From Candidatus Heimdallarchaeota archaeon (GTDB lineage: Archaea; Asgardarchaeota; Heimdallarchaeia; JABLTI01), in NCBI GenBank assembly GCA_030614005.1, contig JAUWKS010000044.1, forward strand, positions 1 to 27,093: a DNA stretch of 27,093 nt, written 5' to 3'. The stretch's first letter is position 1; the number at the start of each line of letters is the position of its first letter. The position numbers and the translations under genes were made by a program. The notes beneath the pieces were generated by a model, which saw only the letters and a program-made list of their open reading frames with translations, had not been told where the DNA came from and ran no database searches. This document shows positions 9,935 to 27,093 of this stretch, piece by piece.

Positions 9935-9983
9935 AATGAATTGGGGTTTACTTCTAACGATGCACTATCCCGAGAAGCACTGG

Positions 9984-10352: not shown

Positions 10353-10435
10353 CAGCTATAAACATTAATTGTCCCTGTATGAACACTGCCATTTTTCATT
10401 TAAAAGAAGCTAAATGCAAATAAGTGTGTTAGATG

Positions 10436-10605
10436 AAAGAAAAAAAATGTTGATTAGTGGATGGGCTTCTCAATCCGAAAACCCCATCCCATTTTTCCGT
10501 CTTCTTTCGGGAAACAAGAAGCGTGAAACACATTCACTTCTTGTTAAGAAACAGTAGAACTTTCTCTTAATTAATATTCTCTGGAAACATTCAGACAGAA
10601 ATTAG
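10436..10605. repeat. structured dispersed repeat, copy 2 left part
   Basis: Homologous to 1081-1269. The stem AACAAGAAG 10513-10521/CTTCTTGTT 10537-10545 replaces the copy-1 stem sequence while keeping pairing. Confidence 0.9.
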
Positions 10606-10731
10606 CCTGTGAAAAAAGTAATAAATCTTCATGTAATCAACTATATTAGAAGAATCGAATTTCATCCAAGTTTGTTCTGGAAAATTTGGTTCTTTATTAG
10701 AATTAGGCTTGTTGTAATTAGAGGGTTTATT

Positions 10732-11649
10732 ATGTGTGCAAGTTTTGGTATAAAAAAAGGAAATTGTAGAGTTATTGTTGATGTTCAGTCACAAGATATT
10801 AGAGGTGAAGGATCTGAATTTCCCAGAATTATTATTCCACTGAAAATTGCTGGAGAAACTTCAAAAACTGAAATCCATTATACTTTGATGACAATCCAGG
10901 GCGAGATAATAGTTCGGGGTGATAGTAAACATTTTACTATTGGTAAATTTAGCGAAAATGCTACTTTAAAAATTGAGTCAGCGAGAGGTGAAAGAAGCGT
11001 AATACTTTCAATACCAATTAATTTTTGGGCTTTAGAAAAGATCGAACAGATTAGAAAAGAAGATTTAAGTCTCACACTTGATTGTAATTTCAATTATCTA
11101 TTATGGGATAAAAGATATAATCGCGCTGATTTTTCAACAACAGATAATCAGAGTATTAGATTTACTATTCCACAATCAAATTGGTTAAAAATATTGAAAA
11201 ATACTGGTTTTACCAACATAAAAATTCTTGAGATAGTTATTCCAGAAGCTTTTAGTGATGAGAAATTTGACATAATGGTTAAACATCTTAAGGTTGCCAA
11301 CGATTTTATACTTAAAGGAGATTATGAGTCAGCAGTTAAAGAATGTAGACTAGCAATAGAACCAATACCTAATCTTTTACCAACAGAGAAAATAACTAAC
11401 AAGGATGGTAAGCCACCATCTTTTAAGGATAGACTAAACCAATTTTGTAAAGAGCATATTCAATCTTCAATTGGTAAAGAAAAGACAAAAATGTTGGTTA
11501 AAACAATTTGGAGTTTTTCCTCACAATTTCATCATTCAGATACTCCAAAAAAGACAAAGAAAACTGATATATCCAGAACTGATGCTGAATTTATCATTCA
11601 CACCACTTCAGGAATTATTGCTTATCTTGGAAAAATCCTATCACAATGA
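10732..11649 (+). CDS. Abi_C/HEPN-like abortive-infection protein
   Basis: C-terminal helical pattern ANDFILKGDYESAVKECRLAIE...SSQFHH...ISRTDAEFIIHTTSGIIAYL. ATG 10732 follows GAGGGT and is preferred over GTG 10609. Confidence 0.55.
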   Translation: MCASFGIKKGNCRVIVDVQSQDIRGEGSEFPRIIIPLKIAGETSKTEIHYTLMTIQGEIIVRGDSKHFTIGKFSENATLKIESARGERSVILSIPINFWALEKIEQIRKEDLSLTLDCNFNYLLWDKRYNRADFSTTDNQSIRFTIPQSNWLKILKNTGFTNIKILEIVIPEAFSDEKFDIMVKHLKVANDFILKGDYESAVKECRLAIEPIPNLLPTEKITNKDGKPPSFKDRLNQFCKEHIQSSIGKEKTKMLVKTIWSFSSQFHHSDTPKKTKKTDISRTDAEFIIHTTSGIIAYLGKILSQ

Positions 11650-11652
11650 AAA

Positions 11653-11729
11653 AAATTAGACGCTTAAAAAGAAAACGAGGGAGAGTATACTGGGATAATA
11701 ATGAATGACAGTAAAGAAAAACAAATGAA
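11653..11729. repeat. structured dispersed repeat, copy 2 right part (RBS plus relic start MNDSKEKQMK)
   Basis: Homologous to 1263-1339. Confidence 0.85.
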
Positions 11730-11734
11730 GTGTA

Positions 11735-12316
11735 TTGAAAATGGAAGTAGAAGAATCAAATAATGAAATAGAAGAAAACGAAAAACCAAAAGTGAAGAAG
11801 TGGCAAATAATCACTGTAATTTCAATAATATCCTTACTTCTCGCAAGTGCATTTTTTTCTGGTGGGGTTTTACTAGGACATAAACTCTATCGAATTGAGG
11901 AATATAATAACGATTGGATAATAAAAAATTCGCTCCATTACGTTGGGGTTAGTTATGTAAATGGGTCACATCATTCTACAATACACTATAATCGTTTGTG
12001 GGAGGATCAACCAGAATTACTCTACCTTCAATTTTGGGATAATGATCCAAAAGATAGGAACAACCCAGAATGTTTTGATTTATATGTTGGAAATAACACT
12101 TACGCATATCAGATAGTAAACATTTCACTAGCCTTCTCGAAATATCTAACAACTAGAAACTATCTAAAATTTGAATTTTATAGTTACGAATTCAATCCTG
12201 TTACCAGTATAGGAATAAACCCACAGTTTATCTATGGAGATAAAAATGTTAAGAATGGAACTCTTACATTGGAATCATCAAATGTTACATTCATTGAATA
12301 CAGAATTATGTACTAA
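11735..12316 (+). CDS. single-pass membrane protein
   Basis: Acidic N-terminus, one TM (WQIITVISIISLLLASAFFSGGVLLG), then a beta-rich ectodomain. ATG 11741 is likely. Confidence 0.7.
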   Translation: MKMEVEESNNEIEENEKPKVKKWQIITVISIISLLLASAFFSGGVLLGHKLYRIEEYNNDWIIKNSLHYVGVSYVNGSHHSTIHYNRLWEDQPELLYLQFWDNDPKDRNNPECFDLYVGNNTYAYQIVNISLAFSKYLTTRNYLKFEFYSYEFNPVTSIGINPQFIYGDKNVKNGTLTLESSNVTFIEYRIMY

Positions 12317-12376
12317 ATATCTAACAAATTTATTCATAAAATCAATTATTAGTGATACCATTTTAGTAAAAATACT

Positions 12377-12550
12377 ATTGTAATAGTCTTAGAAGAGAAG
12401 ACACTACGATTCTGTCCGAACTGTGGCAATCTAGTAAGACTAAAACTAAAAGAGCACAAATATTATCAAAATTTCTATATGTGTCCTATCTGCGGAGATA
12501 CCGTCTTATCAAAAGGAATGATACGAAATCCGTTTAGAGGAGCACAATAG
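12377..12550 (+). CDS. small zinc-ribbon protein, not in ORF track (start codon unclear)
   Basis: Translation ...LRFCPNCGNLVRLKLKEHKYYQNFYMCPICGDTVLSKGMIRNPFRGAQ* has two CxxC pairs. No in-frame ATG/GTG/TTG upstream of the first CxxC. Confidence 0.55.
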   Translation: MVIVLEEKTLRFCPNCGNLVRLKLKEHKYYQNFYMCPICGDTVLSKGMIRNPFRGAQ

Positions 12551-12598
12551 GGGAAAAGGATAATTACCAAATCAAATACAATAGATTCAGTGATAATC

Positions 12599-12820
12599 AT
12601 GTATAGTTCAGAGAAATTTTCAAAATTAAATTGGGAATATATAGAGCAAAACAGTAAACCATCTACAAGTAACGATTATATTAGAAGAGCAAAAGTTCCT
12701 GGAGGGTGGTTAGTTGAGAGTTATGTACGTGGGAGACCCCCTGATGGGTTATGATTTGGAGTAGGACTAACATTCATACCTGATCCACAACATAGGTGGA
12801 ATACAGCGAGCTATAAGTAA
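12599..12820 (+). pseudogene. small conserved hypothetical (RAKVPGGWLV...TFIPDP.H.W type) with an in-frame TGA
   Basis: MYSSEKFSKLNWEY...RRAKVPGGWLVESYVRGRPPDGL*FGVGLTFIPDPQHRWNTASYK*, with TGA at 12752-12754. The protein-like motif continues past the stop. Confidence 0.65.
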
Positions 12821-12828
12821 GTTGAGAA

Positions 12829-13065
12829 TTATTCCCACTTTCTATCATCCTTGGGGATAATTAACCGAGTAACTTGGATAACTACACCACAAACAGGACA
12901 AGCAAAGTGCAGGTAAGCAACTTCACGTTTAACAAAGATGAAAATATTAAACTGACCACACTTAGAACAGAGACGCATAGTTTTCTGTAATTCTCGGACT
13001 TCATACCGATGGAATTGTTCTTTCTCTGTTTCTCTCCAACGTGGACGGTAGGAACCATGAGCCAT
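12829..13065 (-). CDS. small zinc-ribbon protein
   Basis: CSKC...CPVC pairs. Confidence 0.6.
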   Translation of the reverse strand: MAHGSYRPRWRETEKEQFHRYEVRELQKTMRLCSKCGQFNIFIFVKREVAYLHFACPVCGVVIQVTRLIIPKDDRKWE

Positions 13066-13305
13066 AGAAAATCACGAGTGATTTTATTATTAAAACAAAA
13101 TAAAGTCCAAGCTCAGAGATATCAGAAAGTAATCTATACTCAGGAAATCTTTGCCAAAGAAAAAAGATTTGATGTGAAAAGAAGAACACTTTCGAGCAAA
13201 TTAACACCTTAGAGCACCAAGAAAGTATAGGTAGAAAGGATGTGTTTTCATAAACTTCATAAATTCTCAAATAGATAAGCATGAGTAAAAGGATTGAGGA
13301 TTTAA

Positions 13306-16300
13306 ATGACTATTTTTGAAAAGAATAATTTCCTTAAAATCTTCATTAGTTCAACATTTAGAGATTTAAGAAATTTTAGACAAGAAATTATTAAAGATTT
13401 AGATCATTGTTTTTCTATTGCTGCTATGGAAAGCTTCATCCCTTCTGGGAAACATTCACAAGAAGTTATAGTTCAAGAATTGAAATCAAGTGATATTGTT
13501 TTATTTTTTATTTCTTCATATTATGGAACTGTAATGGATAGATGCCGCATGCAGAATGATTGTAAATCCAAATGCGGAGCTAAAAATAACAAACAAATAT
13601 CATTTACTCGTTGTGAATATAGATATACAAATTCAATAAATCAAAATCACTCAACATATAAAATTAGAGATGATGGTTGGAATGAATTGGAAGATACATC
13701 GCCATCATTGGAATTCTTAGAAGAAATAGAAGGAAATGAGAATTGTGCATATATAACAACTGAAGATTATGAAAGGGTTTTACATGATCTTGTACACAAT
13801 ATAATAGCTTGGTATAGTTGTAATAATCTACATTTTGGTCGATTTTGCGGTAGACGAGAAGAACTAAGTGCATTATTTGAAAAAATTAAAAATAATAATG
13901 TAGTTGAAATTGTAGGAATAGGTGGTGTAGGTAAAACAACATTATGTGAAATACAATTATTATTATTCAGTTTATTAGGAAAACAAATTTACTATATAAG
14001 TCAAGAAGATTTTTATGTATCTGGAACAGGATATGATTTTTTTCCGAAAAATGTGCCTATTTATAGAACTAAAAACTTAACGCTTGACGATTTCGCTAGA
14101 TGTTTGAAACTTCCAGAAAATGTTTTAAAATTGGAAAGTAATCTAAAAAAGAAATTAATCATTGAGCTTTTGGACAAAGATAAGGGATCAATATTATTTA
14201 TCGATAGTATAAAGATGAATAAACATCTCAGTGAGTTTATTAGAGAATGTCAAAATTACCTAAAGAAAAGCTGTTTCTTGTTTTCTTCTAAGACTGATTG
14301 TGGAATTGCTTCGGAACGATTAAAAATCAATCCAATAAATGATTCTGAAGACCAGTTTGAATTACTTAGAATTTTTTTGGAAAAACTTGGATTACATGAG
14401 AACATTCCTAAAAACACAAAAATTAGGATTGTGAATTTAGCAGAAGGTCATCCAATTGCAACATATCTTCTTGTGAGTAATTATAATAGAATAGATTTTG
14501 AAACCATTGAGAGATTTAGGAATAGCTGTGATTTTTCTAAAGAAGATGACGTTAAAGAATATCTTTTAAGAGTAATACAAGAAGGATTGAAAAGTGATTT
14601 TTCTTTCACACTATTAAGTAATCTTGCAGTAATTGATGATATAATTGAGTATGAGATTATTTTAGATGCAGTAAAACAAACATTTCCTAATTCTTCCGAC
14701 TCATTATCGATAAATGCATTTAATGAAATAATTGATGCATTTTTAATGAAAAGAGAAAATGGCAAATTACTTTGGTGCTTAAATCAAATAAATGAGATAT
14801 TATACAGTGATATTGAAGAAAATCATATTATTGCTGTTAAATACTATGAAACTTTAGAATCAACAACATCACTTATTGATTTTGAATTAAAGAAATATAT
14901 CCATCAGTTAAAGAGTGGAATTAATAACAATATCAAAGATAAGTTTCTAAAATATGCTTCCGAAATCTCAACAATTCCTATTTTTCAAAATAAAAAGACA
15001 TTAAATCTTATGATAATATTAGGTGAAACTTTAATTGACAAAGTAGATGATAATCATTTAGCTTATATCTATGCTTATCTAGGACAGTTGCATGAAAACA
15101 TAACTGGTATGGGGTTTGAAGGAAAAAGTTTCTCATGTAGAAAAGCCATTGAATTTTACAGTAGAGCATTGGAATATTTTGGTTTGAGAAAAAATTCGTA
15201 TAATAATGCTAATACAAGAAACAGTATAGCAAATTCTTATAGAATGCTAGCAGAAATCGAAAATCGAGAAGAAAATTGCGAAAGAGCATTAAATATGTGC
15301 AAAGAAGCTATGATTGATTTTCCTAGTGAAATTTATCCTGAGTTATATTTTATATTTAAAATCAATCAAGGATTAACATATCAAACCTTATCCATTTCGT
15401 CTGATCGAAAAAAAAACTGTAAGAAAGCACTAAGAGCCTTTAATGAAGCACTAGAGTTTTACACAAAATCAAATTATCCATTAGATTATGCATTAATTCA
15501 AAACAATCTCGGAAATGCTTATCAAACTCTAGCTGAAATTGATAGAAGAGTCACTAATTCTAAAAATGCTATATCAGCATTCTCAGAGTCTCTGAAAATT
15601 TATACAAAAGACAAATACCCACAAGATTATGCAAATGGCAAACATAACATAGGTTCTGTTTACCATATTTTGTTTGACTTGGATGGCAATGAAAAGATTT
15701 TTGTAAATTCAATAAATGCATATAGAGAAGCTCTAAAAATAAGAACAAAGAGAAAGTATCCCTTTTTATATGCAGAAACTCAAGGTAATTTATCATCTCT
15801 TCTTATTAGTTACATAAATAAAAATGAAAGTCTGAAAACATGCAAGTTAGCTCTATACATAACACAAGAAGCTATATCAATTAATACAAAAGATATAAAT
15901 CAATATAGCTATGCCCAACAAAATTTGAAACTTGGGTTTATTTTTATGGTATTATCGAGATATGAGAATACAGAGGAGAATTTAGAGAAATCTCGATTAG
16001 CATTAGAAGAAGCTTTAACCATCTTCACGGTGGAAAATTATCCCTACCACTATGGAAATGTAATGATATCCTATGGAAATTATTATCGCGAAATGGCAAA
16101 ATTTGAGAAAAACAAGACTAGGTTTTATGATGCCATAGAAGCATTCGAAATTGCTAAGGAGATTTTTAATGAAGAAGGATATCCGATTCAATTTGGAAAA
16201 ATAAATATTAATATGGGCAATGTCTTCATAACATTAGCAAAACACGAAAAAAAAGCTGTTAATTGCAAGAAAGCAATAGATTGTATAGCATCAGCGATAG

Positions 16301-16407
16301 AAGCATTCGGTGATAGATATCCTGATTTACGGAAGTTGGCAATGGATGATTTTAATCAATTCAAAGTATTTTGTTCAGATTTGAGAAATTCCTTCGAAAA
16401 TATATAA
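13306..16407 (+). CDS. DUF4062-STAND (NB-ARC-like) NTPase-TPR protein, NLR/Avs-like
   Basis: N-terminal IFISSTFRDL...AAMESF...SDIVLFFISSYYG...TRCEY (DUF4062). Walker A GIGGVGKTT, Walker B ILFID. Repeated YP.DYA.IQNNLGNAYQTL TPRs. Confidence 0.9.
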   Translation: MTIFEKNNFLKIFISSTFRDLRNFRQEIIKDLDHCFSIAAMESFIPSGKHSQEVIVQELKSSDIVLFFISSYYGTVMDRCRMQNDCKSKCGAKNNKQISFTRCEYRYTNSINQNHSTYKIRDDGWNELEDTSPSLEFLEEIEGNENCAYITTEDYERVLHDLVHNIIAWYSCNNLHFGRFCGRREELSALFEKIKNNNVVEIVGIGGVGKTTLCEIQLLLFSLLGKQIYYISQEDFYVSGTGYDFFPKNVPIYRTKNLTLDDFARCLKLPENVLKLESNLKKKLIIELLDKDKGSILFIDSIKMNKHLSEFIRECQNYLKKSCFLFSSKTDCGIASERLKINPINDSEDQFELLRIFLEKLGLHENIPKNTKIRIVNLAEGHPIATYLLVSNYNRIDFETIERFRNSCDFSKEDDVKEYLLRVIQEGLKSDFSFTLLSNLAVIDDIIEYEIILDAVKQTFPNSSDSLSINAFNEIIDAFLMKRENGKLLWCLNQINEILYSDIEENHIIAVKYYETLESTTSLIDFELKKYIHQLKSGINNNIKDKFLKYASEISTIPIFQNKKTLNLMIILGETLIDKVDDNHLAYIYAYLGQLHENITGMGFEGKSFSCRKAIEFYSRALEYFGLRKNSYNNANTRNSIANSYRMLAEIENREENCERALNMCKEAMIDFPSEIYPELYFIFKINQGLTYQTLSISSDRKKNCKKALRAFNEALEFYTKSNYPLDYALIQNNLGNAYQTLAEIDRRVTNSKNAISAFSESLKIYTKDKYPQDYANGKHNIGSVYHILFDLDGNEKIFVNSINAYREALKIRTKRKYPFLYAETQGNLSSLLISYINKNESLKTCKLALYITQEAISINTKDINQYSYAQQNLKLGFIFMVLSRYENTEENLEKSRLALEEALTIFTVENYPYHYGNVMISYGNYYREMAKFEKNKTRFYDAIEAFEIAKEIFNEEGYPIQFGKININMGNVFITLAKHEKKAVNCKKAIDCIASAIEAFGDRYPDLRKLAMDDFNQFKVFCSDLRNSFENI

Positions 16408-16500
16408 GCTATGAAAGCTATATATTAGCATTGGATTTTTCTCACTTCAATAATTTGCCATTTTATTCACTTCTTATGCTCTTCTTTAATGACATTTTAA

Positions 16501-17043
16501 TTATTTTCTCAATTTTTGTGATTTTCTCTTAGAATTTTTTCTCCTACTAAACAGAAAACTCCAAATCAAAAATAGTACAAGTGGAAATGAAAAAAATTCT
16601 GACACACCTAAAATTTTAGTTTCATTTGTTGGATCTAAACTTGTTGGTGGTATTGTAACACTTGGAATATGTAATGAATCAAATCTACTTAGATTAATTG
16701 TTACCAAACTATAATCTTCATCTGCCCAAACAGTGATTCTATAGCTGAAATTTAATGGATCAATATCAATTTCTCTTGCAAAGCTTACGCTTGTAACATT
16801 AACTTCATTGTATTGATTTCCTTGATAATCAATGACATCCCAACTAATATTATTAGGTGTAATTTCCTCTTGAGAACTATCTATTACTACACTATTTAAA
16901 ACCAAACGTGTATTATAGCATCTTTCAGAGCAAACTAATTCTCTCCATCCAGTTGTTATTATACCAACTCCTGAAAAAGTTCCTGAATTGGGAATTAATA
17001 AAGTTGAGATTATTAATAATACTGGTAAAATTTTTTGAATCAT
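16501..17043 (-). CDS. secreted, C-terminally anchored surface protein
   Basis: N-terminal signal peptide, then a Pro/Thr linker, then VSEF+TM+basic tail resembling PEF-CTERM-like sorting signals. Confidence 0.7.
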   Translation of the reverse strand: MIQKILPVLLIISTLLIPNSGTFSGVGIITTGWRELVCSERCYNTRLVLNSVVIDSSQEEITPNNISWDVIDYQGNQYNEVNVTSVSFAREIDIDPLNFSYRITVWADEDYSLVTINLSRFDSLHIPSVTIPPTSLDPTNETKILGVSEFFSFPLVLFLIWSFLFSRRKNSKRKSQKLRK

Positions 17044-17334
17044 TCTATTTCCTCAATTCAATATTGTTTTTCTTAAATATAAATACACAAATTTGGATTT
17101 AATTCTTGGTATTATATATAATATACAAGTCTAGTTTAAGTATGTTCAAATACAACATTTGATTGAATTGAAAAGTATCTTGTCAATTATTGGTAAATTA
17201 AATATAAACAAATACTGCTAAGTAAGTAAAAAATGAAAAAGCTTTTATTATTTTTCTCTTAAATTTTCTTTGGCAATAATACTTTCAAAATAGATTATTT
17301 TATTGCAATAATAAGGAAATGAAATATCTCTTTA

Positions 17335-18168
17335 GTGAGGAGAATTAATTTGAAAAAACCTACAAAAATAATAATTTTAGCAAGTCTAATGGTAATATTC
17401 TCAACTAGTTTTATTTTTATAAAACCAGCATCAGGTTGGATTGAACAATATGGTTGGGAAGACACGAGTACGCTTTTTGGTACTCAGATTTCAAAAGTAA
17501 AAATCCAAGCTCATGCTGTTTACAATGACAATGATCAAGGTGGGGTTGCTGCGTTTGGCGTATGGATAAATGGCGAATACGATACTTCATACTATACAAG
17601 AATAGTCACTTACATCTATGTTTTAGCAGAATATGAAGTAGAAGAAATAAACTGGAAAACAGGGTAGTATAGTCATTATACTTACTGGGGTGCTGCTCCT
17701 TCAGACCTTATGAGTTGGGGTGGAGATTTTTCCTATAATTCAGGAGTACCCGGTCAATGGACTTGGACTGCTGGTGCAACAGGATATGGTATGTCATTAG
17801 GAATTTCCTATCAAGCAAATCCAAAAGCATCATATGGCTCTGCAAATAGTGTATTCGAAGGTTACAGATATCTTGGATGGTTTAAGAGTCAATATAACTG
17901 GTTTGGCGGTCATGAATTCTCGGCTCTTCTTAAACTACACTTAATAAATGATGCAGCTATAGATTGGGCAAATGGTATTTGGGAAGAAGTTGGATTAACA
18001 GAGCGAATTACAAAAATAAATAAAATTCGAGTTGCGCTTAATTTTGGATTCTATGTCTATTCATTTCCGAAGTGGTTTCTATTTGGTGCTCATGAACATA
18101 TAATGGGTGATGGTGCACCTTCAACAGATTTAAATTACATACCACTTTTAGTTGGAAGTGCTCCATGA
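17335..18168 (+). pseudogene. secreted beta-rich protein interrupted by an in-frame TAG
   Basis: 17335-17667 and 17710-18168 share a frame. TAG 17665-17667 is followed by the open YSHYTYWGAAPSDLM. N-terminal signal peptide present. Confidence 0.7.
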
Positions 18169-18538
18169 AAAAGGATTAAACCTTTTTCTATTTTTTTCAT
18201 TGATATTTACAATTATTTTATTTTTTCTTCAACAGCAGGATTATAATCCTTTTTCTTAAAAAAAATCATTTAGACGAGTAATGAAAAAAGATAATTCTCC
18301 TAAATTTATAATGATTTTTGTTTTTTTTCAAAAAAAAATCTTGTAACATGCAGTTATAGAATAAATCTTCGCTTCGTGGTACTTTTAAAGATAGATTCAA
18401 ACTATATCCTTGGAAAGACAGCTACTCTCATTTTCTCCAACCGCTGATCCGAACCCCAGCTGTCGCCCCCGAGAGAAACACTCTCCTATCTAATTCCTTC
18501 AACGACAGGGACATTCTGGTCGTCCCCGTCAAGATGAT

Positions 18539-18850
18539 TTAAAGATAACTCTTCATTTTTTCTGTTAACATTGATCTTTCTTCTTTTCCTACATCCATAA
18601 TTTTTGCTACAAAATTTGATATGAATTCTGGATCTTCTTTAAACATTGCGAGTATTAATTTTTTTAATAATTTTTCATCTTTTGGTAATAAATTTTCCAG
18701 TATACTATCAATACCAAATACTAAAATTAATTCGATATAGTCTTTATCATTTTCTAATGATTCACCCAGAGTAGAATCAATAACTATCTTTAGTGTTTTT
18801 ATTCTCTTCTCTAACTCTTCAGAAATTTCAAGTTTCAAGATAATCACCAC
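18539..18850 (-). CDS. small protein, possible ribbon-helix-helix DNA-binding
   Basis: IILKLEISEELEKRIKTL fits a beta-strand-then-helix RHH pattern; divergent from ParB. Confidence 0.5.
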   Translation of the reverse strand: MVIILKLEISEELEKRIKTLKIVIDSTLGESLENDKDYIELILVFGIDSILENLLPKDEKLLKKLILAMFKEDPEFISNFVAKIMDVGKEERSMLTEKMKSYL

Positions 18851-19021
18851 TTCTCTATTGAGAGAATTTATTTGTGAAGAAATAAAGTTTTAGGTTCGAT
18901 TATTAGTAAAGAAGATACAGAAATGCCAACTATTGAACGTAAACAGAACCCACTTGACCATTTTTTCGAACAATAGATAAGAAAGAAATTGTAATATATT
19001 AGCTAACATTATTGTTAGAGG

Positions 19022-19795
19022 ATGCAGAAAATGGAAATAAAAGAAATAAGAATATCCGAAATCACTATTTCAGAACATAATACAAGAAAGGATTTAAGTG
19101 CGGGAATAGAAGATGCAGGTATTGAGGATTTAGCTCAAAGTATAAAAGAAAATGGTTTACTTAATCCTCTAATTGCTATGGATAACAAAGATGGAACGTA
19201 TAGTTTGATTGCTGGACAAAGAAGATTCCTTGCCTGTCAAAAGCTGGGTTTACAGACAGTTCCTGTTATTATTCGGGAAATAAATGAATCAACTGAAGCA
19301 ACAATATTGTCATTAATTGAAAATGTTCATAGAGCAGATATGAGTCCAATGGATAAAGCAAGAGCTTATGAACAAATTTACCTTCGATATAACGATTACA
19401 AAAAAGTGTCAAAGGAAACTGGCGTTTCTGTGCCAACTATTAAGAGATATCTAAAATTGTTAGAACTTGCTCCATCAATACAAGACCAACTCACAACCTC
19501 TGATGGACCAACAGGTATTGCTGCATTATCCAAATTGGCTACTACTTTTTCTTCACCAGAAGAGCAGGTTGAAGCTCTTAAAGAAATTAGTGGTTTCAAG
19601 CAACAAATCCAGTTAGAGATATTAAGACGAAGTGAAGGTGATCTTGATAAAATTAAGGATTTAAAGGAACAAGCAATGGGTGGAGCTTTTGCTATAACAG
19701 TTTGCAGAGGACTTGAATCTTGTACTTTCATACCTGAAGAATTAGTTGATGTTTTCATTGAAGCTATTAAAAACATCAAAAAGGGGAAAAAGTAG
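19022..19795 (+). CDS. parB: ParB/RepB/Spo0J family protein
   Basis: LAQSIKENGLLNPL, LIAGQRRFLA (GxRR), LIENVHRADMSPMDKARAY, and an HTH VSKETGVSVPTIKRYL. Confidence 0.9.
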   Translation: MQKMEIKEIRISEITISEHNTRKDLSAGIEDAGIEDLAQSIKENGLLNPLIAMDNKDGTYSLIAGQRRFLACQKLGLQTVPVIIREINESTEATILSLIENVHRADMSPMDKARAYEQIYLRYNDYKKVSKETGVSVPTIKRYLKLLELAPSIQDQLTTSDGPTGIAALSKLATTFSSPEEQVEALKEISGFKQQIQLEILRRSEGDLDKIKDLKEQAMGGAFAITVCRGLESCTFIPEELVDVFIEAIKNIKKGKK

Positions 19796-20126
19796 AACTA
19801 TAATACTTGTTTTTATCCCATTTTATAGCAACCTAATTCTACTCATGTGATATTTTTAGAGGAAAAATAATCTCGCGATATTACCAAGATTAATAAGAAA
19901 TTATAATGAATGAAATTATTATCCGATAAGATGTTCCAATTCTAACTGACAATTAGTTATTATAAATAGCATAGAATAAAACTTATGTCGAAATTTGAAT
20001 AATTACATTTTCTTGTAATAATTGTTGAACAACAAATAGAAAATACTAAAATAATGAAAGTGATTTAATGAAAACTAAATTCCAAAAACATTTTGGACCT
20101 ATTGTAATAAGCTCTTCTGGAGATTT

Positions 20127-20555
20127 GTGGCAAATTGTTTGTATAATGGAAACAATTATACACGACTAATTTGTGAAAATATAATATGTAAGTCAGATGT
20201 ACAATTCACAGTAGAAAACAAGATAGCAGTTACTTTGTATGGACATCAATTAGTATCAATTTTTGAAATAGAAAATGATTTTGAATATTTACCATTAATC
20301 CATGATAAATCAAGTCCTAAGGAAAGCAAACTGGTCAAGTGTAATAATGTAATAATCAGTAGAGTGATAGATGGATTAAATCTCTTGTTTGATGGATATC
20401 TTTATGTTGATGAGAAAAAACTGAGCGAAAATGATATTAATTTCTTGAAAGATATCCAGACAAAAATAGAAAATGCTGCACCAGGTAATACTGCAATTTT
20501 AAGACAAACTGAATTAGATCAAATGGCAAAATTATATGATAAACTCAAAAAGTAA
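20127..20555 (+). CDS. hypothetical protein (possibly frameshifted from ATG 20068)
   Basis: 142-aa ORF. A short upstream ORF from 20068 (MKTKFQKHFGPIV...) overlaps it in another frame. Confidence 0.45.
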   Translation: MANCLYNGNNYTRLICENIICKSDVQFTVENKIAVTLYGHQLVSIFEIENDFEYLPLIHDKSSPKESKLVKCNNVIISRVIDGLNLLFDGYLYVDEKKLSENDINFLKDIQTKIENAAPGNTAILRQTELDQMAKLYDKLKK

Positions 20556-21288
20556 TCCTTTATTCATTTGCTATATTTTTGCACAATCTAGAGAAATTTT
20601 CTAAAGTATTTACTCAAGATAGATGAGACTCTAAAATCAACAAGCTAATTAGGTCAAAAATACAATTCTTTTCGATTAACGAAATGCTTATTTCACTTAT
20701 AGCTATTATATTTTACTTCAGAAAAGAAATTGAATAAAAAATGAAATGGGAACTATTATAGAAGCATTATAGATTTGTAAAATACAACAAAAGAAATCAC
20801 AGCTGAGGAGCAGTGTAGATTAAATAAAGAAGAAAAGGTGATTGTGATGATTTTGCAATTCTTTCATCAACAATATTTGAAAATAACGGTTACGATACAA
20901 TTTTTGCATTAATTCAAGATGATAGCTATCCATATATCGATGGTGGAATTCATCATGTGCTATGGTTCTAGCTTTATTCTGAGTGATTTGTCGAAAAAAT
21001 GACGAAAGTTCACTCAATATCTACTCGATGAAATCAATTAAAGTTTTAACTCTACTCTTACCATCAAAATGAAAGAGATAGCTACTTGGGAAAGTAGATT
21101 GTCTAATTATAAGCTAAAATTAAGAACACTTGATGTATGGATCTTTTTTATTTCAGTTTTCTTTGTTTTATATGAATAGTTGTCATAGGAATACTAGCAA
21201 TCGATAAAGAAACAAAAAAGAAAAAAACAGTACAAATAGAAAATGGAATAATAAAATTTGATGATGGAAACAAAAAAAATAACTTACA

Positions 21289-21311
21289 TCAAATCCCGGG
21301 GGCCAGACCAA
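21289..21311 (+). repeat. tRNA-Tyr 3'-end remnant, allele A
   Basis: Identical to 4902-4924. Confidence 0.85.
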
Positions 21312-21371
21312 TTACTCATTCTTGTATTTTCCAATTATTATTTTTTAATGAAAATTGATTCTAATAATATT

Positions 21372-21513
21372 GAAGTAGTAACTCAGCTTTGCTAGAGTTC
21401 TCGGCTATAGACTTAGTCGCTTCGATGAAAATGATGACTTGGTATCAGCGAGCTTACATACAACTCAGGCAGTAACTGAGAGATCCGGAGTTCAAATCTC
21501 CGGGGCTGGACCA
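21372..21513 (+). tRNA. degenerate intron-containing tRNA-Tyr (pseudogene; anticodon ATA, inferred ancestral GTA)
   Basis: D-stem ACTC/GAGT; anticodon stem CTCGG/CTGAG; 64-nt intron 21411-21474 at position 37/38; T-arm CGGAG-TTCAAAT-CTCCG; G72, A73 and CCA. The acceptor 5' strand GAAGTAG does not pair with GGGCTGG, and the D-loop GG is lost. Confidence 0.8.
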
Positions 21514-21612
21514 ATTTTCTTATTCTCGAAACTTTTCAATCATTCAATTAGAGATTTCCCTCTTAGACAAGAATTCTTTAATGCAATGTTTATTCTATTG
21601 ACTTGTAATACA

Positions 21613-22482
21613 ATGAGTTTCTCTGATACAAAGATACAACAAATCATACGTGAAAAACTCTCATTAAAAGTGAGTAGTATAACTGAGAATACTATAGGTT
21701 GGGATCAAGATGTATGGATTATTGATACAAATGATCAAAAAATTGTTTTAAAACACCCTAGGATTAATAACAAAGTTCGAAATAGTCGAGAAGTTATAGC
21801 AAGTAAACTACTTGCCCAAAAGGGTGTTATAGTTCCCCAAATATTATATTCTGATGACCAAATCCTAATTGAAACCTTCTTGGAAGGAATTCTTGTTGAG
21901 CAAGTTGATTTCACTAAAATTTCTCGAAACGATTTATATTTTAATGCTGGCAAAGTCCTCAAAAAAATCCACAGTATCACTACCACTAATTTCGGTATGG
22001 TTACTGATGACTCACTTGTTGGAGAATTCTCTACTCAAGTGGAGTATACTCAAGTTGGTTTCTCTAAAGCATTGATCAATCTTGAAAAAACGCCATTTTA
22101 TACTCATGATGATATTAGACAAATAAGGCAATATTTCGAATCAAATAAATCCGTTTTAGAGAACAGTCCCTCAGTTTTACTTCATGCGGATTACTGTGAT
22201 ACAAATCTTATTTACACTCCAGATGGAGAAATTGCAGTGATTGATTTTGGTGATCTTTCTGTCGGTAATCCAATGTATGATGTATCCATGGTGTATCTTG
22301 ACTGTGTTGATGATGGATCTTACCAAGCTTGTATTGATGGGTATGGTGAAACTAATCTCAAGCAAGTGGAATTATTTGGTCTTTGTCGGTTCACCTATTT
22401 AATTTCTGCCTGGTGGAATAAAGGTGATCCCCAAAAACGAGTGGAACGTTTATGTCGTCTTTTTGAATCTATTTGGAGATGA
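21613..22482 (+). CDS. aminoglycoside phosphotransferase/choline kinase-like (APH family) protein
   Basis: IVLKHP (VAIK-like Lys), LLHADYCDTNL (HxDxxxxN) and IDFGD. ATG 21613 (or 21586) preferred, because the 21439 start runs through the tRNA remnant. Confidence 0.85.
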   Translation: MSFSDTKIQQIIREKLSLKVSSITENTIGWDQDVWIIDTNDQKIVLKHPRINNKVRNSREVIASKLLAQKGVIVPQILYSDDQILIETFLEGILVEQVDFTKISRNDLYFNAGKVLKKIHSITTTNFGMVTDDSLVGEFSTQVEYTQVGFSKALINLEKTPFYTHDDIRQIRQYFESNKSVLENSPSVLLHADYCDTNLIYTPDGEIAVIDFGDLSVGNPMYDVSMVYLDCVDDGSYQACIDGYGETNLKQVELFGLCRFTYLISAWWNKGDPQKRVERLCRLFESIWR

Positions 22483-22533
22483 TTCTAGTTCTCAATTGTG
22501 AAATGGTTTCGCAATCCGCTTACTTTTTTCATC

Positions 22534-22572
22534 AACCGAGATGAGGGGAGTTCGAATCTCGGGGTTAGACCA
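22534..22572 (+). repeat. tRNA-Tyr 3'-exon remnant, allele B
   Basis: AACCGAGATGAGGGGAGTTCGAATCTC-GGGGTTAGACCA aligns with 21474-21513. Confidence 0.8.
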
Positions 22573-22723
22573 ATTCTTTAACGAATAAAAAATAATTAGT
22601 TATAGTCTTAAAACTAATCTAAACCAATTTTTTACTCATTTTAAACCTTCAGAACCCAACAACAACTATTCTCAGAGATACCTTTTGTATATTCGTGTCC
22701 TATACTTATTTGTGATTTAAAAA

Positions 22724-23161
22724 ATGAAAAAATCAATACTTATACCACTCTTAACAGTAGGTCTTCTTGCAGTGGTTGCAGGATCTACTCTGGGCTTAAT
22801 ATATGCTTTCTCTCCTAGTGACGATAGTGAACTAGAAGTTGTAAGTGTAACAACTCAACCTGGTACAGACCAAGTTACTGTCATTTTAGAATGTGAAGAA
22901 AATCAAACTGGTAACCTAACCAGAAATAGATTCAGAAGAAACTTCGCTTATATGCACCAAATCCAAGTTAACAATTCCGACACAAATGAGCTTATGCTTC
23001 AAGAAAGAATACAAAACCAATGGCAGCACCGAGTCCAAGCAGGTAAAACCCTAATGTATCAATTCAATATCGAAGGGCTTGAAAATGGACAAATGTTACA
23101 ATTGAGAATTGAATACAACAACGGCAAAATACTAACTTATAATTTTCAAGTAAATGGTTAG
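22724..23161 (+). CDS. secreted or membrane-anchored small protein
   Basis: N-terminal signal/TM MKKSILIPLLTVGLLAVVAG, then a beta-rich body. Confidence 0.75.
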   Translation: MKKSILIPLLTVGLLAVVAGSTLGLIYAFSPSDDSELEVVSVTTQPGTDQVTVILECEENQTGNLTRNRFRRNFAYMHQIQVNNSDTNELMLQERIQNQWQHRVQAGKTLMYQFNIEGLENGQMLQLRIEYNNGKILTYNFQVNG

Positions 23162-23172
23162 CCAAAAACATG

Positions 23173-23210
23173 AAAAGGGGAAGCTATGTATTTCCCTTCT
23201 TTTTTCTTTT
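23173..23210 (+). terminator. hairpin plus T-tract
   Basis: GGGAA...TTCCC followed by a T-rich tract, just after the stop at 23161. Confidence 0.45.
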
Positions 23211-23275
23211 AATAGGTTAGTGAAATTATATCTTGAACGATTTTTTTCATCATGTCAAAAACGTGTTTTTTATCT

Positions 23276-23317
23276 GTAACCGAGATGAAGGGAGTTCCAA
23301 TCTCTAGAGTCTGATCA
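23276..23317 (+). repeat. tRNA-Tyr 3'-exon remnant, allele B, most decayed
   Basis: GTAACCGAGATGAAGGGAGTTCCAATCTCTAGAGTCTGATCA aligns with 21472-21513 and 22534-22572. Confidence 0.7.
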
Positions 23318-23328
23318 TTAACACTATT

Positions 23329-23793
23329 TTATTTTTGATTGCCTCCCAATTCGAGCAAGTGTTGGAATTGCCAATTGCGCTCCTTGGAGGTGTTTGCTTT
23401 GGCATCAAAAGTTTCTGCAGCATAAGCAACAGCTTTAGCAGCATAAGTAGCTGCGTGAACAGCATGACTAACAACATGGACGGTTGCTGCTGCGTGTCCT
23501 GCAGCACGGGCACTTGCGCAAGCTGCTGCATGATTGATATCGCGAGCTGCTGCGTGGCTGGCAAATGCAGCACTACGCGCTTCGCTTATTGTTATTTCAC
23601 CCTGCACCCAAGCACGTCCTGCTTCGATTGCTTTTCGGGGTCTGTTGTCTTTCGGGTGATTCTCTTCGAAATATGGGAGTACATGCTCAGCACAATCAGT
23701 AGCCCAGAGCACTAATATTCTGTGATCCTGTTTGTTCACAAGCTCTGCAATCGATTTACTTATTTTTGTATCTACAATTTTTTTTTCAACCAA
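23329..23793 (-). CDS. Imm5-like putative immunity protein
   Basis: LWATDCAEHVLPYFE...DNRPRKAIEAGRAW.G...AFASHAAAR...AARAAGHAAATVHV matches the family pattern. TTG start preceded by GAAGGT. Confidence 0.8.
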   Translation of the reverse strand: MVEKKIVDTKISKSIAELVNKQDHRILVLWATDCAEHVLPYFEENHPKDNRPRKAIEAGRAWVQGEITISEARSAAFASHAAARDINHAAACASARAAGHAAATVHVVSHAVHAATYAAKAVAYAAETFDAKANTSKERNWQFQHLLELGGNQK

Positions 23794-24021
23794 TTCTATA
23801 CCTTCTCGAAGTTAATTAAGATAAAAATGCATCATTCTTACTTCACACTTTTCTACTTGATCCACCCTTGATTTTTGTTCCAATTACTAAATTTCAATAT
23901 CTTGTTATTCTTTAGTGATGTTACTATTTAATTTGCTCCTTCTCTGCTTAACTAGCTCTTTACTTAAGAAAGAAAAGAATTCCCTTTATATTTAATTTAA
24001 AGCAATAGAATTTTGTTGATA

Positions 24022-24630
24022 ATGAAACAAACTAGATTGATTAAGAAAACCGCTCGAGATAGTTCTTCACATAGGTTTATTACTTTAATTCTAGTCTTGT
24101 TTGTTATTTTTCTTGTCCTTCAAAATTCTATAACAAATGTTCATGCAGAAGATGATGATGACGAAGATGAAGATTTTGAAGATGTATCAAAAGATCTTGG
24201 GTGGGCTGCTTTAGGATTATTAGCTGTGAATTCCATCTACGTGCTTTTTTCTAAAGTTTTCAGAATAACAAGAAAATTCTCTGATGAAGGCGACTTTGCT
24301 GCTGTAAAATCTAAAACTCGTACTGCTTACCTCAAGGTTCGTAAACCTTTACAAATTATTCACGGTATTTCTGGATTGGGTGCATTGGTTGTTTTGCTAA
24401 TTCATGGTATAATACTTACTGATGGAGATTCAGAAGCCGTTGGACTTGGTTGGGCCAGTGCAGCAATATTTATTTTCTATATTTTGACAGGAATAATATT
24501 GATGTTGAAGCTCAAGCCTTTCTGGACTTTAAAGAAAGTTAGAAAGACTCTTCTCTTTCTTCACCGCAGTCTTATCCTTTTAGTTTTGATATTTATCTTA
24601 CACATTGTTCATATAGTAATTAGTGATTAG
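24022..24630 (+). CDS. multi-TM protein with His residues, cytochrome b/DUF4405-like
   Basis: Signal/TM, acidic EDDDDEDEDFED linker, then TM helices carrying IHG, IHG, LHR and LHIVH. Confidence 0.6.
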   Translation: MKQTRLIKKTARDSSSHRFITLILVLFVIFLVLQNSITNVHAEDDDDEDEDFEDVSKDLGWAALGLLAVNSIYVLFSKVFRITRKFSDEGDFAAVKSKTRTAYLKVRKPLQIIHGISGLGALVVLLIHGIILTDGDSEAVGLGWASAAIFIFYILTGIILMLKLKPFWTLKKVRKTLLFLHRSLILLVLIFILHIVHIVISD

Positions 24631-24733
24631 AAGTGAATTAGTAATCTTTATCTCGAGATAAATTATTTAAGAGTAGATTCCCCTTCTTCAATATTGAGGA
24701 ATACAAATCACTCATTTGTTGGATGTTGAAATT

Positions 24734-26050
24734 ATGACCTATAACATTGGCATTCGTCGAGAAACAAAACATGGTGAACGAAGAACTCCACTTGTACCAA
24801 GTGCAGTTACTTTATTGAAAGAAAAATACGATATTCAGACAATTTTGCAACCACATGCTACTAGAGCTTTTTCTGATGAAGAGTACGAAAAAGCAGGTGG
24901 AATACTCAAAGAAGATCTCTCTGAATGCCCTGTTATTTTTGGCATTAAAGAAATGGAAACTGATATTTTCACCAAAGGCGGCGCTTACATGTGTTTCCAT
25001 CATGTAATCAAAGGGCAAAAGGATAACATGCCTATGTTAAAGTATCTTATGGATACTGGTTGTACAATATTTGATTATGAGAAAGTGATTGATGATAAAA
25101 ATCGACGTTTAATCTTCTTTGGTCGTCATGCTGGTTATGCTGGTATGATTGATACCTTACATGGATTTGGTTTGCGCTTACAAGCAGAAGGTTTTGATAC
25201 TCCTTTTCTCAAAATCAAACAAGCTGGTAATTATTTTGATTTGAATGAAGCAAAAGAGGAAATTGCTAAAGTCAAAGTATTAATTGAAAATGATGGTTTA
25301 CCTGAAGAATTATGTCCGGTTGTTTTTGGTTTCCTCGGATATGGCAATGTTTCTCAAGGTGCACAATCTATACTTGAGATTCTTCCTGTCAAGGAAATTG
25401 CTCCTGAAGATTTAGCCAAAGTGGTTGAAAACCCCGATTTAGATGAATGTAAGAAAGTTATCTATAAAGTAGTCTTCAAAGAAGAGCATATGGTTAAACC
25501 AATTGGTGACCACAAATTCGAATTACAAGATTATTATAAGCATCCTGAGAAATATGAAGGCGTTTTTTCAGAGAATTATTTACGATATCTTACTGTAATC
25601 GTTAATGGAGCTTATTGGTCTGCTAAATATCCCAAGTCTGTTACTAAACAAGAATTGAAAGAGTTATTTAGTGGTGATTCTCCTCCTCGCTTACGGTTTG
25701 TCGGTGATATCAGTTGTGATATAGAAGGTGGTTTCGAGGGTACACTACGTATTTCCTACATAGACCGACCATTCTATGTTTTTGATCCATTCAAGAACAC
25801 GGCAACAGATGGTATAAAAGGAAAAGGACCAGCTATTTTAGCCATTGACCATTTGCCTACAGAAATACCTCGAGATGCTTCTGAATATTTCAGTGAGAGA
25901 TTAATGACTTTTGTTCCGGAAATAGCAAAAGCAGATTTCACCGGTTCTTTTGCTGATGTGAAATTGTCTGACGATGTTAAAAGATCGGTTATTCTTTGGC
26001 AAGGTAAATTCACTGAACCATTCGAGTATATTGCTGACTTTCAAAAATAG
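24734..26050 (+). CDS. lysine-ketoglutarate reductase / saccharopine dehydrogenase (AlaDH/PNT fold; AASS N-terminal half homologue)
   Basis: IGIRRETKHGERRTPLVP, FHHVIKGQKDNMPML, DYEKVIDD...RLIFFGRHAGYAG, GDISCDIEG and IDHLPTEIPRDASEYF. Confidence 0.9.
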   Translation: MTYNIGIRRETKHGERRTPLVPSAVTLLKEKYDIQTILQPHATRAFSDEEYEKAGGILKEDLSECPVIFGIKEMETDIFTKGGAYMCFHHVIKGQKDNMPMLKYLMDTGCTIFDYEKVIDDKNRRLIFFGRHAGYAGMIDTLHGFGLRLQAEGFDTPFLKIKQAGNYFDLNEAKEEIAKVKVLIENDGLPEELCPVVFGFLGYGNVSQGAQSILEILPVKEIAPEDLAKVVENPDLDECKKVIYKVVFKEEHMVKPIGDHKFELQDYYKHPEKYEGVFSENYLRYLTVIVNGAYWSAKYPKSVTKQELKELFSGDSPPRLRFVGDISCDIEGGFEGTLRISYIDRPFYVFDPFKNTATDGIKGKGPAILAIDHLPTEIPRDASEYFSERLMTFVPEIAKADFTGSFADVKLSDDVKRSVILWQGKFTEPFEYIADFQK

Positions 26051-26085
26051 GAAGGGATGATTTCTCATCTCTTTTTTCTTACTTT

Positions 26086-26442
26086 CTATTCTAATCCTGC
26101 TAATTTCTTTATTGCTTTCCAGTCTGTTTGTTCTTTCTTAGTTGCTGGATTCAAAATAAAATAATCTAATTCACTACTTCCTCTGTAGTTCCCATCTAAA
26201 ACAACTGCATTTTCTCCAAATGCTCTCCACGTTTTTCTAATTTCCTCTGCTGTTTTTGCTTTTTTTCTATTCTCTTCTAATGACTCTCTTACCCACCTTC
26301 GAGCAAATTCAACAGCTAGATCCTTTGTTGGGAATCCCTCTATGAGATAATCTTCTTCAGGATCCATATGAAAATTGTCGATTATTAGTACTGTAAAACT
26401 TTCCTTCTTACTCATAAGATTAGTTTCTTCAGTAATATTCAT
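26086..26442 (-). CDS. conserved hypothetical protein
   Basis: 118-aa ORF with protein-like pattern DNFHMD...GFPTKDLAVEFARRWVRESLEE. Confidence 0.65.
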   Translation of the reverse strand: MNITEETNLMSKKESFTVLIIDNFHMDPEEDYLIEGFPTKDLAVEFARRWVRESLEENRKKAKTAEEIRKTWRAFGENAVVLDGNYRGSSELDYFILNPATKKEQTDWKAIKKLAGLE

Positions 26443-26611
26443 TAAAGTTTTGAGAAAGGATTCTTTTATTGAATATTATTTCTTTCTAAATTTCTTCCAA
26501 GAATTTTATTAACCTTGAATGTCTATATGGATAAATAACAAATATTTATTTAGGAATCAATTTATTTAACTTAAAGCTTAGACGAATTAAACTGAAAGGA
26601 ACTGATTGATT

Positions 26612-27093
26612 ATGAAAAAAGTAGTAGTTTTTGGTGCCGGTTTAGTATCAAAACCAGGTATAAGATATTTACTTGATAACGAATTTCAGGTGACAGTTGC
26701 TTCTCGAACAGTTAGCAAAGCTGAAGCAATTGTTGACAAGCATCCAAATGGTAAAGCTTTAGCCTTTGATATTACTAAAGATTCGCTGGAAGATTCAGGC
26801 TTAATCCAAGGTCATGATTTAGCTGTAAGCTTGTTACCTTATGCTTTTCATCCTGAAGTTGCGAAAGCATGTATTAAACATGGAAAACTCATGGCAACCA
26901 CTTCCTATGTAAGTGACGCTATGAAAGCTTTAGATGAAGATGCCAAGAAAGCTGGAATCCTTATCATGAATGAGTGTGGTGTTGACCCAGGTACAGATCA
27001 TATGAGTGCTATGAAGATCATTCATAGTGTTCAGAAGAAGGGTGGAAAAGTAACCAGTTTTAAATCAATAACTGGTGGTCTTCCTGCTCCTGA
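26612..27093 (+). CDS. saccharopine dehydrogenase (glutamate-forming; Lys9/AASS C-terminal half homologue), 3' truncated by window
   Basis: Not in the ORF track. MKKVVVFGAGLVS Rossmann motif, VSLLPYAFH, TTSYVS, NECGVDPGTDHMSAM and SITGGLPAP. Confidence 0.9.
   Translation, partial: MKKVVVFGAGLVSKPGIRYLLDNEFQVTVASRTVSKAEAIVDKHPNGKALAFDITKDSLEDSGLIQGHDLAVSLLPYAFHPEVAKACIKHGKLMATTSYVSDAMKALDEDAKKAGILIMNECGVDPGTDHMSAMKIIHSVQKKGGKVTSFKSITGGLPAP

Follow-up and report, generated by a model that had tools for sequence, protein, structure and literature searches.

Region 21514–23317 of contig C77 carries an APH kinase gene and a gene for a secreted protein, each lying alone between decaying copies of the 3' end of a tRNA-Tyr gene. 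The contig, which is the window analysed here at its full length of 27,093 bp, comes from G000, a 3.6-Mb metagenome-assembled genome (~90% complete) of the Heimdall group of Asgard archaea. We find that the region is the old distal end of an island linked to tRNA-Tyr, and that new material enters this island on the tRNA side. The APH unit was probably passed between lineages as an integrase-less package of ~1 kb. As an explanation for the locus as a whole we lean towards accretion of pieces at the tRNA gene followed by erosion, with some of the pieces being small units that depended on functions supplied in trans.

Position numbers refer to contig C77 unless another contig or locus is named. 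The compared genomes of the genus include G001, G003, G004, G007, G008, G009 and G010; the last of these (Heimdallarchaeota isolate HM7_B34) is another species, and its tRNA-Tyr locus is called L016. Two JGI metagenome contigs (L055 and L056) represent a distant lineage, M1, and three public metagenome runs, X1, X6 and X7 (the last from marine sediment), were compared as contigs.

Remnants of tRNA-Tyr delimit two single-gene units

Neither ARAGORN nor Rfam reports a tRNA in the window, and the pseudo-tRNA and remnants described here surfaced only through a pattern search and an nhmmer profile built from eight tRNA-Tyr genes of the genus. The profile matches the window five times, always on the plus strand, as co-oriented direct repeats. 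The functional, intron-bearing tRNA-Tyr(GUA) gene is not on the window contig. It lies on contig C6 at 6846–6984, is miscalled by ARAGORN, and has an intron of ~60 nt at the canonical 37/38 position. An alignment of the eight genes shows that CCA is genome-encoded in the tRNA-Tyr genes of the genus. A preliminary description of the window, made from its sequence alone, had proposed an array anchored at tRNA-Tyr, and the C6 gene together with the five co-oriented copies bears this out. The remnants and the units between them are as follows.

4894–4923, plus strand: remnant A1, T-loop to CCA of tRNA-Tyr (nhmmer match 4894–4933, E 3e-6)
21289–21310, plus strand: remnant A2, a T-loop-to-CCA copy of repeat family D3 (nhmmer match 21289–21316, E 5e-4)
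21311–21378, no strand: spacer between A2 and B0, ~68 bp, read directly from the sequence
21379–21513, plus strand: B0, a dead tRNA-Tyr of 135 nt (nhmmer match 21366–21526, E 3e-43; alignment with the eight tRNA-Tyr genes)
21514–22534, plus strand: APH unit, 1,021 bp, made up of a 99-nt head, the APH gene and a 52-nt tail
21613–22482, plus strand: APH kinase gene (Pfam PF01636, E 5e-24)
22535–22572, plus strand: B1, a 3'-exon remnant with a 1-nt deletion and a broken T-stem, CCA kept (nhmmer match 22530–22579, E 6e-8)
22573–23278, plus strand: secreted-protein unit, 706 bp, from the list of open reading frames (ORFs)
22724–23161, plus strand: secreted-protein gene, 145 aa, with an N-terminal hydrophobic signal
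23279–23317, plus strand: B2, the most decayed 3'-exon remnant, with TCA instead of CCA (nhmmer match 23276–23320, E 3e-5)

The remnants fall into two classes of joint, the B type running from the intron/3'-exon boundary and the A type from the T-loop. B1 and B2 start at the first base of the 3' exon, and B2 additionally keeps the last three intron nucleotides, GTA. B0 spans tRNA positions 8–76 and keeps the intron, with the anticodon ATA and without the 5' acceptor strand; its 3' exon is 21475–21513. The idea that the recognisable part of each remnant starts at the intron/3'-exon junction is thus correct for B1 and B2, where homology sets in within 0–5 nt of it, and does not hold for B0, a nearly full-length pseudo-tRNA-Tyr with its intron. 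Measured against the genus consensus 3' exon, B0 has 35/39 identical bases, B1 31/39 and B2 29/39, so that decay grows with distance from the tRNA, in agreement with the left-to-right order first described. The T-arm, the sole hairpin of these recurring sites, is broken in both B1 and B2.

We considered an origin at the RNA level, by a splicing endonuclease cut at the bulge–helix–bulge motif, ligation and reverse transcription. The CCA of the remnants is no evidence for this, since it is encoded in the gene; B2 moreover retains three intron nucleotides. The further suggestion in the preliminary description, that the bulge–helix–bulge region may itself be the crossover site, is unsupported. A conserved 'tail' motif, TTTTTCATCA, that precedes B1 and B2 was set aside as too short and AT-rich to call.

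The B copies start 1,060 and 744 bp apart, and each interval contains one intact gene in the same orientation, which confirms that the two genes each sit alone between remnants. The kinase motifs HxDxxxxN and DFG are legible in the APH sequence and, with a ratio of nonsynonymous to synonymous divergence (dN/dS) of 0.23, the gene is under purifying selection. The secreted-protein family is found only in this genus, at 2–3 copies per genome. Homologues are present in 7 of 10 genus genomes, where none adjoins a tRNA remnant and the flanks are ordinary chromosomal ones.

Comparable units occur in two other species. With the two in G000, one in G010 and one in G003, all four intact single-gene units are co-oriented with the tRNA, and they are compact: the gene is flanked on each side by 51–150 nt that contain no debris of other genes. 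The G003 unit (787 bp) holds a Bles03-like gene, and the remnants on its two sides share 17 identical bases up to CCA (AATCTCCGAGGCCGGACCA). The G010 unit (0.58 kb) holds one 118-aa gene between B2 and a further remnant of the T-loop type. No copies of either gene were found in other arrays. The 118-aa gene (L016 19370–19726) belongs to a family without a Pfam match, present at 1–10 copies per genome (mostly 4–10) and found only in this archaeal family, in 12 of the 60 genomes searched.

A separate observation concerns the tRNA-Tyr gene of G007 (L046, G007:C64 12830–13014), which is inverted relative to the conserved upstream genes and is followed, 16 nt past its end, by a second copy of the T-arm and 3' end.

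The units lie at the distal end of an island

We compared the surroundings of tRNA-Tyr across the genus. The C6 sequence upstream of and including tRNA-Tyr (C6:1–7420) aligns to L016:3727–11149 in G010 at 87% identity, and the end of the window (C77:23231–27093) aligns to G010 at 83–90%, beginning 8.5 kb further on. The distance from tRNA-Tyr to this conserved flank is ~2.7 kb in G009 and ~14 kb in G003. In M1 (L055/L056) the C6-like upstream genes lead to tRNA-Tyr, which is followed by APH, then by a remnant in advanced decay and finally by the conserved flank. The metagenome contigs supply the joins. A contig of X7 passes straight from the intron of a C6-type tRNA-Tyr to window position 21470 and onward into the APH unit. 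Contigs from X1 and X6 put two distinct foreign sequences ahead of that same unit, with the joint in the T-loop at 21488. Synteny with relatives and these joins make C6 and C77 the two sides of a single island, linked to tRNA-Tyr and spanning at least 27 kb, with C6 directly upstream.

In G010, G009, G003, L055/L056 and X7 the island lies directly downstream of the tRNA gene, between conserved flanks. Its content differs among relatives and its flanks are conserved. It measures at least 27 kb in G000, ~14 kb in G003, 8.5 kb in G010, ~2 kb in G009 and 1.3 kb in M1. Beyond B2 the window continues with the following.

23329–23793, minus strand: Imm5-like gene (PF21805, E 7e-44), variable island content
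24013–27093, plus strand: conserved chromosomal flank with a 205-aa ORF, an AlaDH/PNT-like gene and a saccharopine dehydrogenase-like gene

By synteny, the Imm5-like gene is present in G010 and absent from the M1 contigs, and the flank at 24013–27093 is syntenic in G010, G009, G003 and M1. Because some strains have the tRNA directly before the APH unit and others have different elements joined there at the T-loop, addition takes place on the tRNA side, and 21514–23317 is the old distal end of the island. Addition at the proximal end had been part of the preliminary description and is supported by X7 on the one hand and by X1 and X6 on the other.

The APH unit probably moved between lineages

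The APH unit is shared with the M1 contig L056. By BLAST the shared block covers 21551–22532 at 78% identity, with its right end up to B1; read from the sequences themselves, its left end lies at ~21514, the first base after the tRNA end, although the BLAST match begins only at 21551. The genes flanking the APH locus are 71% identical between G000 and M1. Synonymous divergence (dS) between the two is 0.70 for APH compared with 1.8–3.0 for three flanking genes. Fourfold-site identity is 0.59 for APH (0.45–0.71, n = 49) and 0.28–0.52 for six flanking genes, which pool at ~0.40, about saturation; by our own binomial estimate the difference has p ~0.004. The remnant in L056 is closer to M1's own tRNA (26/40, ~65%) than to B1 (20/40, ~50%) in our own site count. 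Furthermore, the APH fragment preserved in G010 differs from that of G000 by a dS of ~1.0 over 86 codons, compared with 0.34–0.62 for the flanks, a comparison that is weak alone and points in the same direction.

Taken from sequence comparison, this pattern suggests that the G000 and M1 lineages had already split when they acquired the APH unit, and that its present ends had formed by then. Because the same head and tail are found in a distant relative and silent-site divergence is lower than in the core flanks, the unit probably moved as a ~1-kb integrase-less package. The earlier proposal that minimal units are added thus keeps its support for APH, with its shared ends and lower silent-site divergence; the continuing traffic of cassettes that it also envisaged is unsupported.

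Other APH homologues have a different setting. In G001, G004, G008 and L057 they adjoin a nucleotidyltransferase gene, with which they are convergent, and lie between copies of that gene's 3' end of ~90–150 bp (L037, G004:C389, 5542–6739; L036, G008:C38, 12500–13690; L057, 3745–4878). In L057 APH is present as a tandem pair. None of the homologues in these four showed a tRNA remnant.

Deletions account for most differences between arrays

The sample for comparing unit order is small, at ~5 comparable loci. Where relatives are comparable, order is conserved and most differences are deletions. B2 is orthologous to a remnant of G010, with an 83% alignment to L016:19155–19330. Directly before this remnant G010 retains only residues 204–289 of a 5'-truncated APH, and the ~60–80 nt that precede the remnant match the tail of the G000 secreted-protein unit at 83%. 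Because the tail of the unit persists there, G010 has probably lost B1 and the secreted-protein gene. Conversely, G000 is without the 0.58-kb unit of G010: its sequence follows the first G010 copy as far as a shared 10-nt block, ATTTTTGATT, 24 nt past the remnant, and then continues as the second copy. This looks like a repeat-mediated deletion and not like a cut at the tRNA-derived core. The gene at 4011–4892, beside A1, is a 5'-truncated member of a ~500-aa family and is counted among the deletions.

The preliminary description had named fixed gene order, or evidence that the units are deletion relics, as grounds against its view of an integron-like array in which gene identity and order vary among relatives. 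The conserved order and the deletional differences count in part against that view. Its suggestion of excised circles was followed in contigs of four runs, from four studies, over 19000–25000, which contain no excision or deletion junction and, being contigs, are uninformative on rare circles.

Large elements on the tRNA side carry no recognisable integrase

The tRNA-proximal part of the island consists of two large elements, one made up of the tail of C6 and window positions 1–4893, the other of 4924–21288. Both are bounded by a perfect 23-nt T-loop-to-CCA repeat, which ties A1 to 21289–21311, and they have left-end sequence and small zinc-ribbon genes in common. A1 marks the right junction of the element extending in from C6 or the window start. 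The 68-bp spacer between A2 and B0 may be all that is left of one further element.

4011–4892, minus strand: 293-aa ORF, starting a few bases from remnant A1
4924–21288, no strand: accessory element of 16.4 kb (Pfam and PHROGs), bounded by the 23-nt repeat

The 16.4-kb element carries an ADP-ribosyltransferase-like gene plus AMP-binding fusion and genes for a STAND-TPR protein, a ParB-like protein and zinc-ribbon proteins. No recombinase was recognised among all the larger ORFs of C77 or of the C6 tail with Pfam and PHROGs, and the same databases revealed neither a complete integrase nor a fragment of one in the units of the tRNA-Tyr array or of the tRNA-Ala array described below. The absence of an integrase from the units, as first described, therefore extends to the large elements of the locus; a recombinase of an undescribed family may be present. 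Tyrosine recombinases do occur in other genomes of the genus, which also has a recombinase family of ~360 aa. Of the integrase loci in the genus, twelve were examined, all of them without a tRNA-Tyr-like sequence alongside.

The 293-aa ORF at 4011–4892 was considered as a split, 'suicidal' integrase of the SSV type and rejected, because its family has no integrase domain. It corresponds to the C-terminal 265 aa of an uncharacterised family of ~490–500 aa; the N-terminal part is absent from the assembly, and the homologous part of the gene stops ~80 nt from A1. Members of the family are stand-alone genes in defence-like neighbourhoods, beside AIPR and PD-(D/E)xK genes, and no clear tRNA-Tyr match was found inside them. 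Free elements with a tRNA-Tyr-like site were sought by pattern scans of IMG/VR viral contigs, without a match; a scan of GTDB contigs for the site returned only the loci of the genus already seen, plus two matches in the actinobacterial genus Sphaerisporangium.

Two small zinc-ribbon ORFs (83 and 93 aa) and a non-coding block of 180–390 nt recur in each large tRNA-Tyr element of G000 and G010 (window 953–1345, 10427–10621, 12391–12531 and 12827–13282; L002, on C6, 7141–7392 and 9102–9911; L016 10871–13132), and the block has a further copy on contig C71. These ORFs and the block may be the conserved core of this element family. At the other end of the window contig, positions 1–578 match the opening 578 bp of contig C122 at 88% identity, probably because the assembly broke there at a repeat or at a branch point between strains.

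A second array lies behind tRNA-Ala

In G000, contig C110 (34604–58449; L075 and L076) carries a tRNA-Ala(TGC) gene followed by four co-oriented copies of its 3' end, of 28–32 nt. Outward from the tRNA the units measure 16.4, 3.5, 2.7 and 1.0 kb. The 16.4-kb unit has a helicase gene and MmeI-type and LAGLIDADG defence genes, the 2.7-kb unit a single UvrD-like gene, and the 1.0-kb unit a DUF433/DUF5615 toxin-antitoxin pair. This toxin-antitoxin unit, the most distal on C110, directly adjoins the intact tRNA-Ala in G008, and G010 keeps the order of the second and third units. The two arrays are alike in that small, old units lie far from the tRNA and large, young ones next to it.

Accretion, erosion and the alternatives

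From the anatomy, synteny, polarity, deletions and lower APH silent-site divergence observed at the locus, we infer an order of events, a crossover position and a need for a trans-acting enzyme. An incoming piece would recombine with the tRNA-Tyr gene that is functional at the time and bring with it a replacement copy of the tRNA end; the displaced original end would be pushed downstream, out of use, and decay. B joints, at the exon boundary, would be the older ones and A joints, in the T-loop, the younger, with large new elements beside the tRNA and the oldest units farthest off. The APH unit would probably have been a ~1-kb, one-gene piece without an integrase already on entry, and because it brought no integrase, it could have been inserted only by an enzyme from another source or through homologous recombination at its tRNA-derived ends. 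Afterwards the array would mostly have passed down vertically, with useful parts retained and ordinary deletions wearing it away.

Several observations weigh against this account. The secreted-protein unit shows no independent sign of having entered as a small unit, and the fact that G010 keeps just the last ~60–80 nt of it fits decay equally well. B0 begins at tRNA position 8 and not at the 3' exon, only 68 bp from A2. No recombinase able to carry out the insertions was identified: the genome, which is ~90% complete, has one partial PF00589 match (C58) and no match to PF16795 or PF00239. The gap between C6 and C77 is unassembled. Finally, the silent-site argument comes from 49 fourfold sites in one gene and one lineage pair, to whose low divergence a constraint on codon usage could contribute, and the G010 comparison of APH covers only 86 codons.

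The small units might instead be pure relics, the in-place remains of large integrase-bearing elements from which one useful gene is left. We regard this as rather unlikely, even though much at the locus agrees with it. Deletions are documented here, in two arrays the units become smaller the farther they lie from the tRNA, distal units are of old date and shared between species, and tyrosine recombinases exist in genomes of the same genus. Decay is moreover the usual fate at tRNA-linked islands (bioRxiv 10.1101/2020.12.28.424599; review of decayed tandem elements, PMC5704250). However, the APH unit ends alike in G000 and M1 even though its silent-site divergence postdates the separation of the two lineages, and independent decay to identical ends is unlikely. 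The compact, debris-free build of the four intact units in three species, all in the direction of the tRNA, speaks against relics as well, as does the lack of an integrase or fragment of one in any array, including the large elements with perfect repeats, and the lack of a tRNA-Tyr-like site at the twelve integrase loci.

Homologous exchange would also bring genes into the island: lineages would swap island genes using the tRNA gene and its remnants as anchors, with no site-specific enzyme. The exchanged APH block does have tRNA-derived sequence on both sides, the 3' exon of B0 has the GAGAG variant of the M1 tRNA while B1 has the genus-typical GAGATG, and G000 and G010 switch at a 10-nt repeat. 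We nevertheless consider exchange improbable as the origin of the small units, as its right-hand anchor would be merely ~40–90 nt at 65–80% identity and the sharp starts of the remnants, at the exon boundary in B1 and B2 and at the T-loop in A1 and A2, resemble the fixed crossover points of tRNA-targeting integrases. The kinds of such crossover points were reportedly catalogued by Williams in 2002.

It is highly improbable that the locus is an active integron-like platform, in which a dedicated recombinase inserts, excises and reshuffles cassettes with the 3'-exon copies serving as attC sites: compact co-oriented units with different genes in three species, content that differs between species while remnants persist, and an X1 contig that departs from B1 at 22564 into other downstream sequence would suit it, but B1 and B2 are degenerate and unlike each other and so make poor recombination sites, no unit is seen in two positions, homologues of the cargo genes elsewhere have no remnant, APH comes first after the tRNA wherever large elements are absent (M1 contigs, X7 strain), and no integrase lies next to the array.

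Comparison with known systems

Integrons, including sedentary chromosomal ones and integrase-less clusters, consist of compact single-gene cassettes separated by a recurring site and added at one end; their attC sites are imperfect inverted repeats that fold in single-stranded DNA. The tRNA-Tyr array shares with them its co-oriented, compact and mostly single-gene units, the recurring site between units and addition at one end. It differs in having no attI and no attC hairpins, in repeats that are copies of a tRNA 3' exon, and in an upstream region of 99–151 nt that belongs to every unit. The analogy to integrons drawn in the preliminary description is not supported. Neither an IntI-type gene nor an attC-like site was found, no unit turned up at two places in the array, and the contigs compared showed no sign of an excision joint. 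Because IntI, attC and shuffling are all missing, the locus is not an integron.

A close likeness is to tandem islands of the tycheposon kind and those catalogued by Islander/TIGER, which lie downstream of a tRNA gene and have co-oriented partial tRNA copies, variable content and conserved flanks. In the tycheposon islands of Prochlorococcus, newcomers push older elements deeper and degenerate remnants lie distally (bioRxiv 10.1101/2020.12.28.424599). Tycheposons carry a tyrosine or large serine recombinase, whereas none was recognised at the tRNA-Tyr locus. This locus is further set apart by an intron-bearing target tRNA, by one class of joint at the intron/exon boundary and by several single-gene units of 0.6–1.1 kb.

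The cis-mobilizable elements (CIMEs) of streptococci are presented, in the passages of PMC5704250 that cite Pavlovic 2004 and Bellanger 2011, as decay products derived from integrative and conjugative elements (ICEs) or integrative mobilizable elements that move with an incoming ICE. As portrayed in those passages, CIMEs resemble our units in their att-derived flanking repeats, their lack of integration genes and their tandem arrangement, together with newer elements, at a conserved gene's 3' end. Like a CIME, the APH gene is flanked by such repeats (B0 and B1), as is the secreted-protein gene (B1 and B2), with one gene each and no integration or transfer genes. Unlike CIMEs, they have no parent element that was found and no known helper, their host is an archaeon, and the APH unit seems to have crossed lineages when already small.

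Closer in host are the tRNA-integrated elements of Heimdallarchaeum described by Wu et al. 2022 (PMC8813620), the aloposons and HeimV1, which measure 8–44 kb and contain giant or viral genes; aloposons carry a ParA/MinD-like ATPase gene and HeimV1 has its own integrase. They share with the tRNA-Tyr locus the archaeal group and the integration beside tRNA genes. A later paper reports ParB-like partition proteins in aloposons, and the 16.4-kb element has a ParB-like gene. Arrays of single-gene units with decaying remnants are not described in PMC8813620. What is unusual at the tRNA-Tyr locus is that no element has a recognisable integrase and that a single-gene unit, in at least one case, seems to have been transferred in that form.

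A broader extension, which we hold to be doubtful, is that the Heimdall group generally stacks accessory genes behind stable-RNA genes such as tRNA-Tyr and tRNA-Ala. Pieces of any size, a single gene being the smallest, would bring nothing for the purpose but a copy of the RNA gene's end and would be put in by a recombinase whose gene lies outside the array, either in the host or in a helper; this enzyme might belong to a family not yet described. In intron-bearing tRNAs the joint would lie at the intron/exon boundary.

Implications

No relatives of eukaryotes closer than the Asgard archaea are known, and the ways in which these archaea acquire genes are a matter of broad interest. By comparative evidence, a single tRNA gene has here been a long-lived landing pad: defence genes come in next to the tRNA, and a small number of useful single genes persist over long periods at the island's far side. 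If it is true that integrase-less pieces insert in trans, these archaea would have an unrecognised recombination system, and the tRNA-Tyr 3' exon and the APH unit would provide a concrete pair of sites with which to seek it. Otherwise, the locus would exemplify the ordinary and well-documented way in which islands grow and decay, and would warn against mistaking decayed att scars for integron cassettes.

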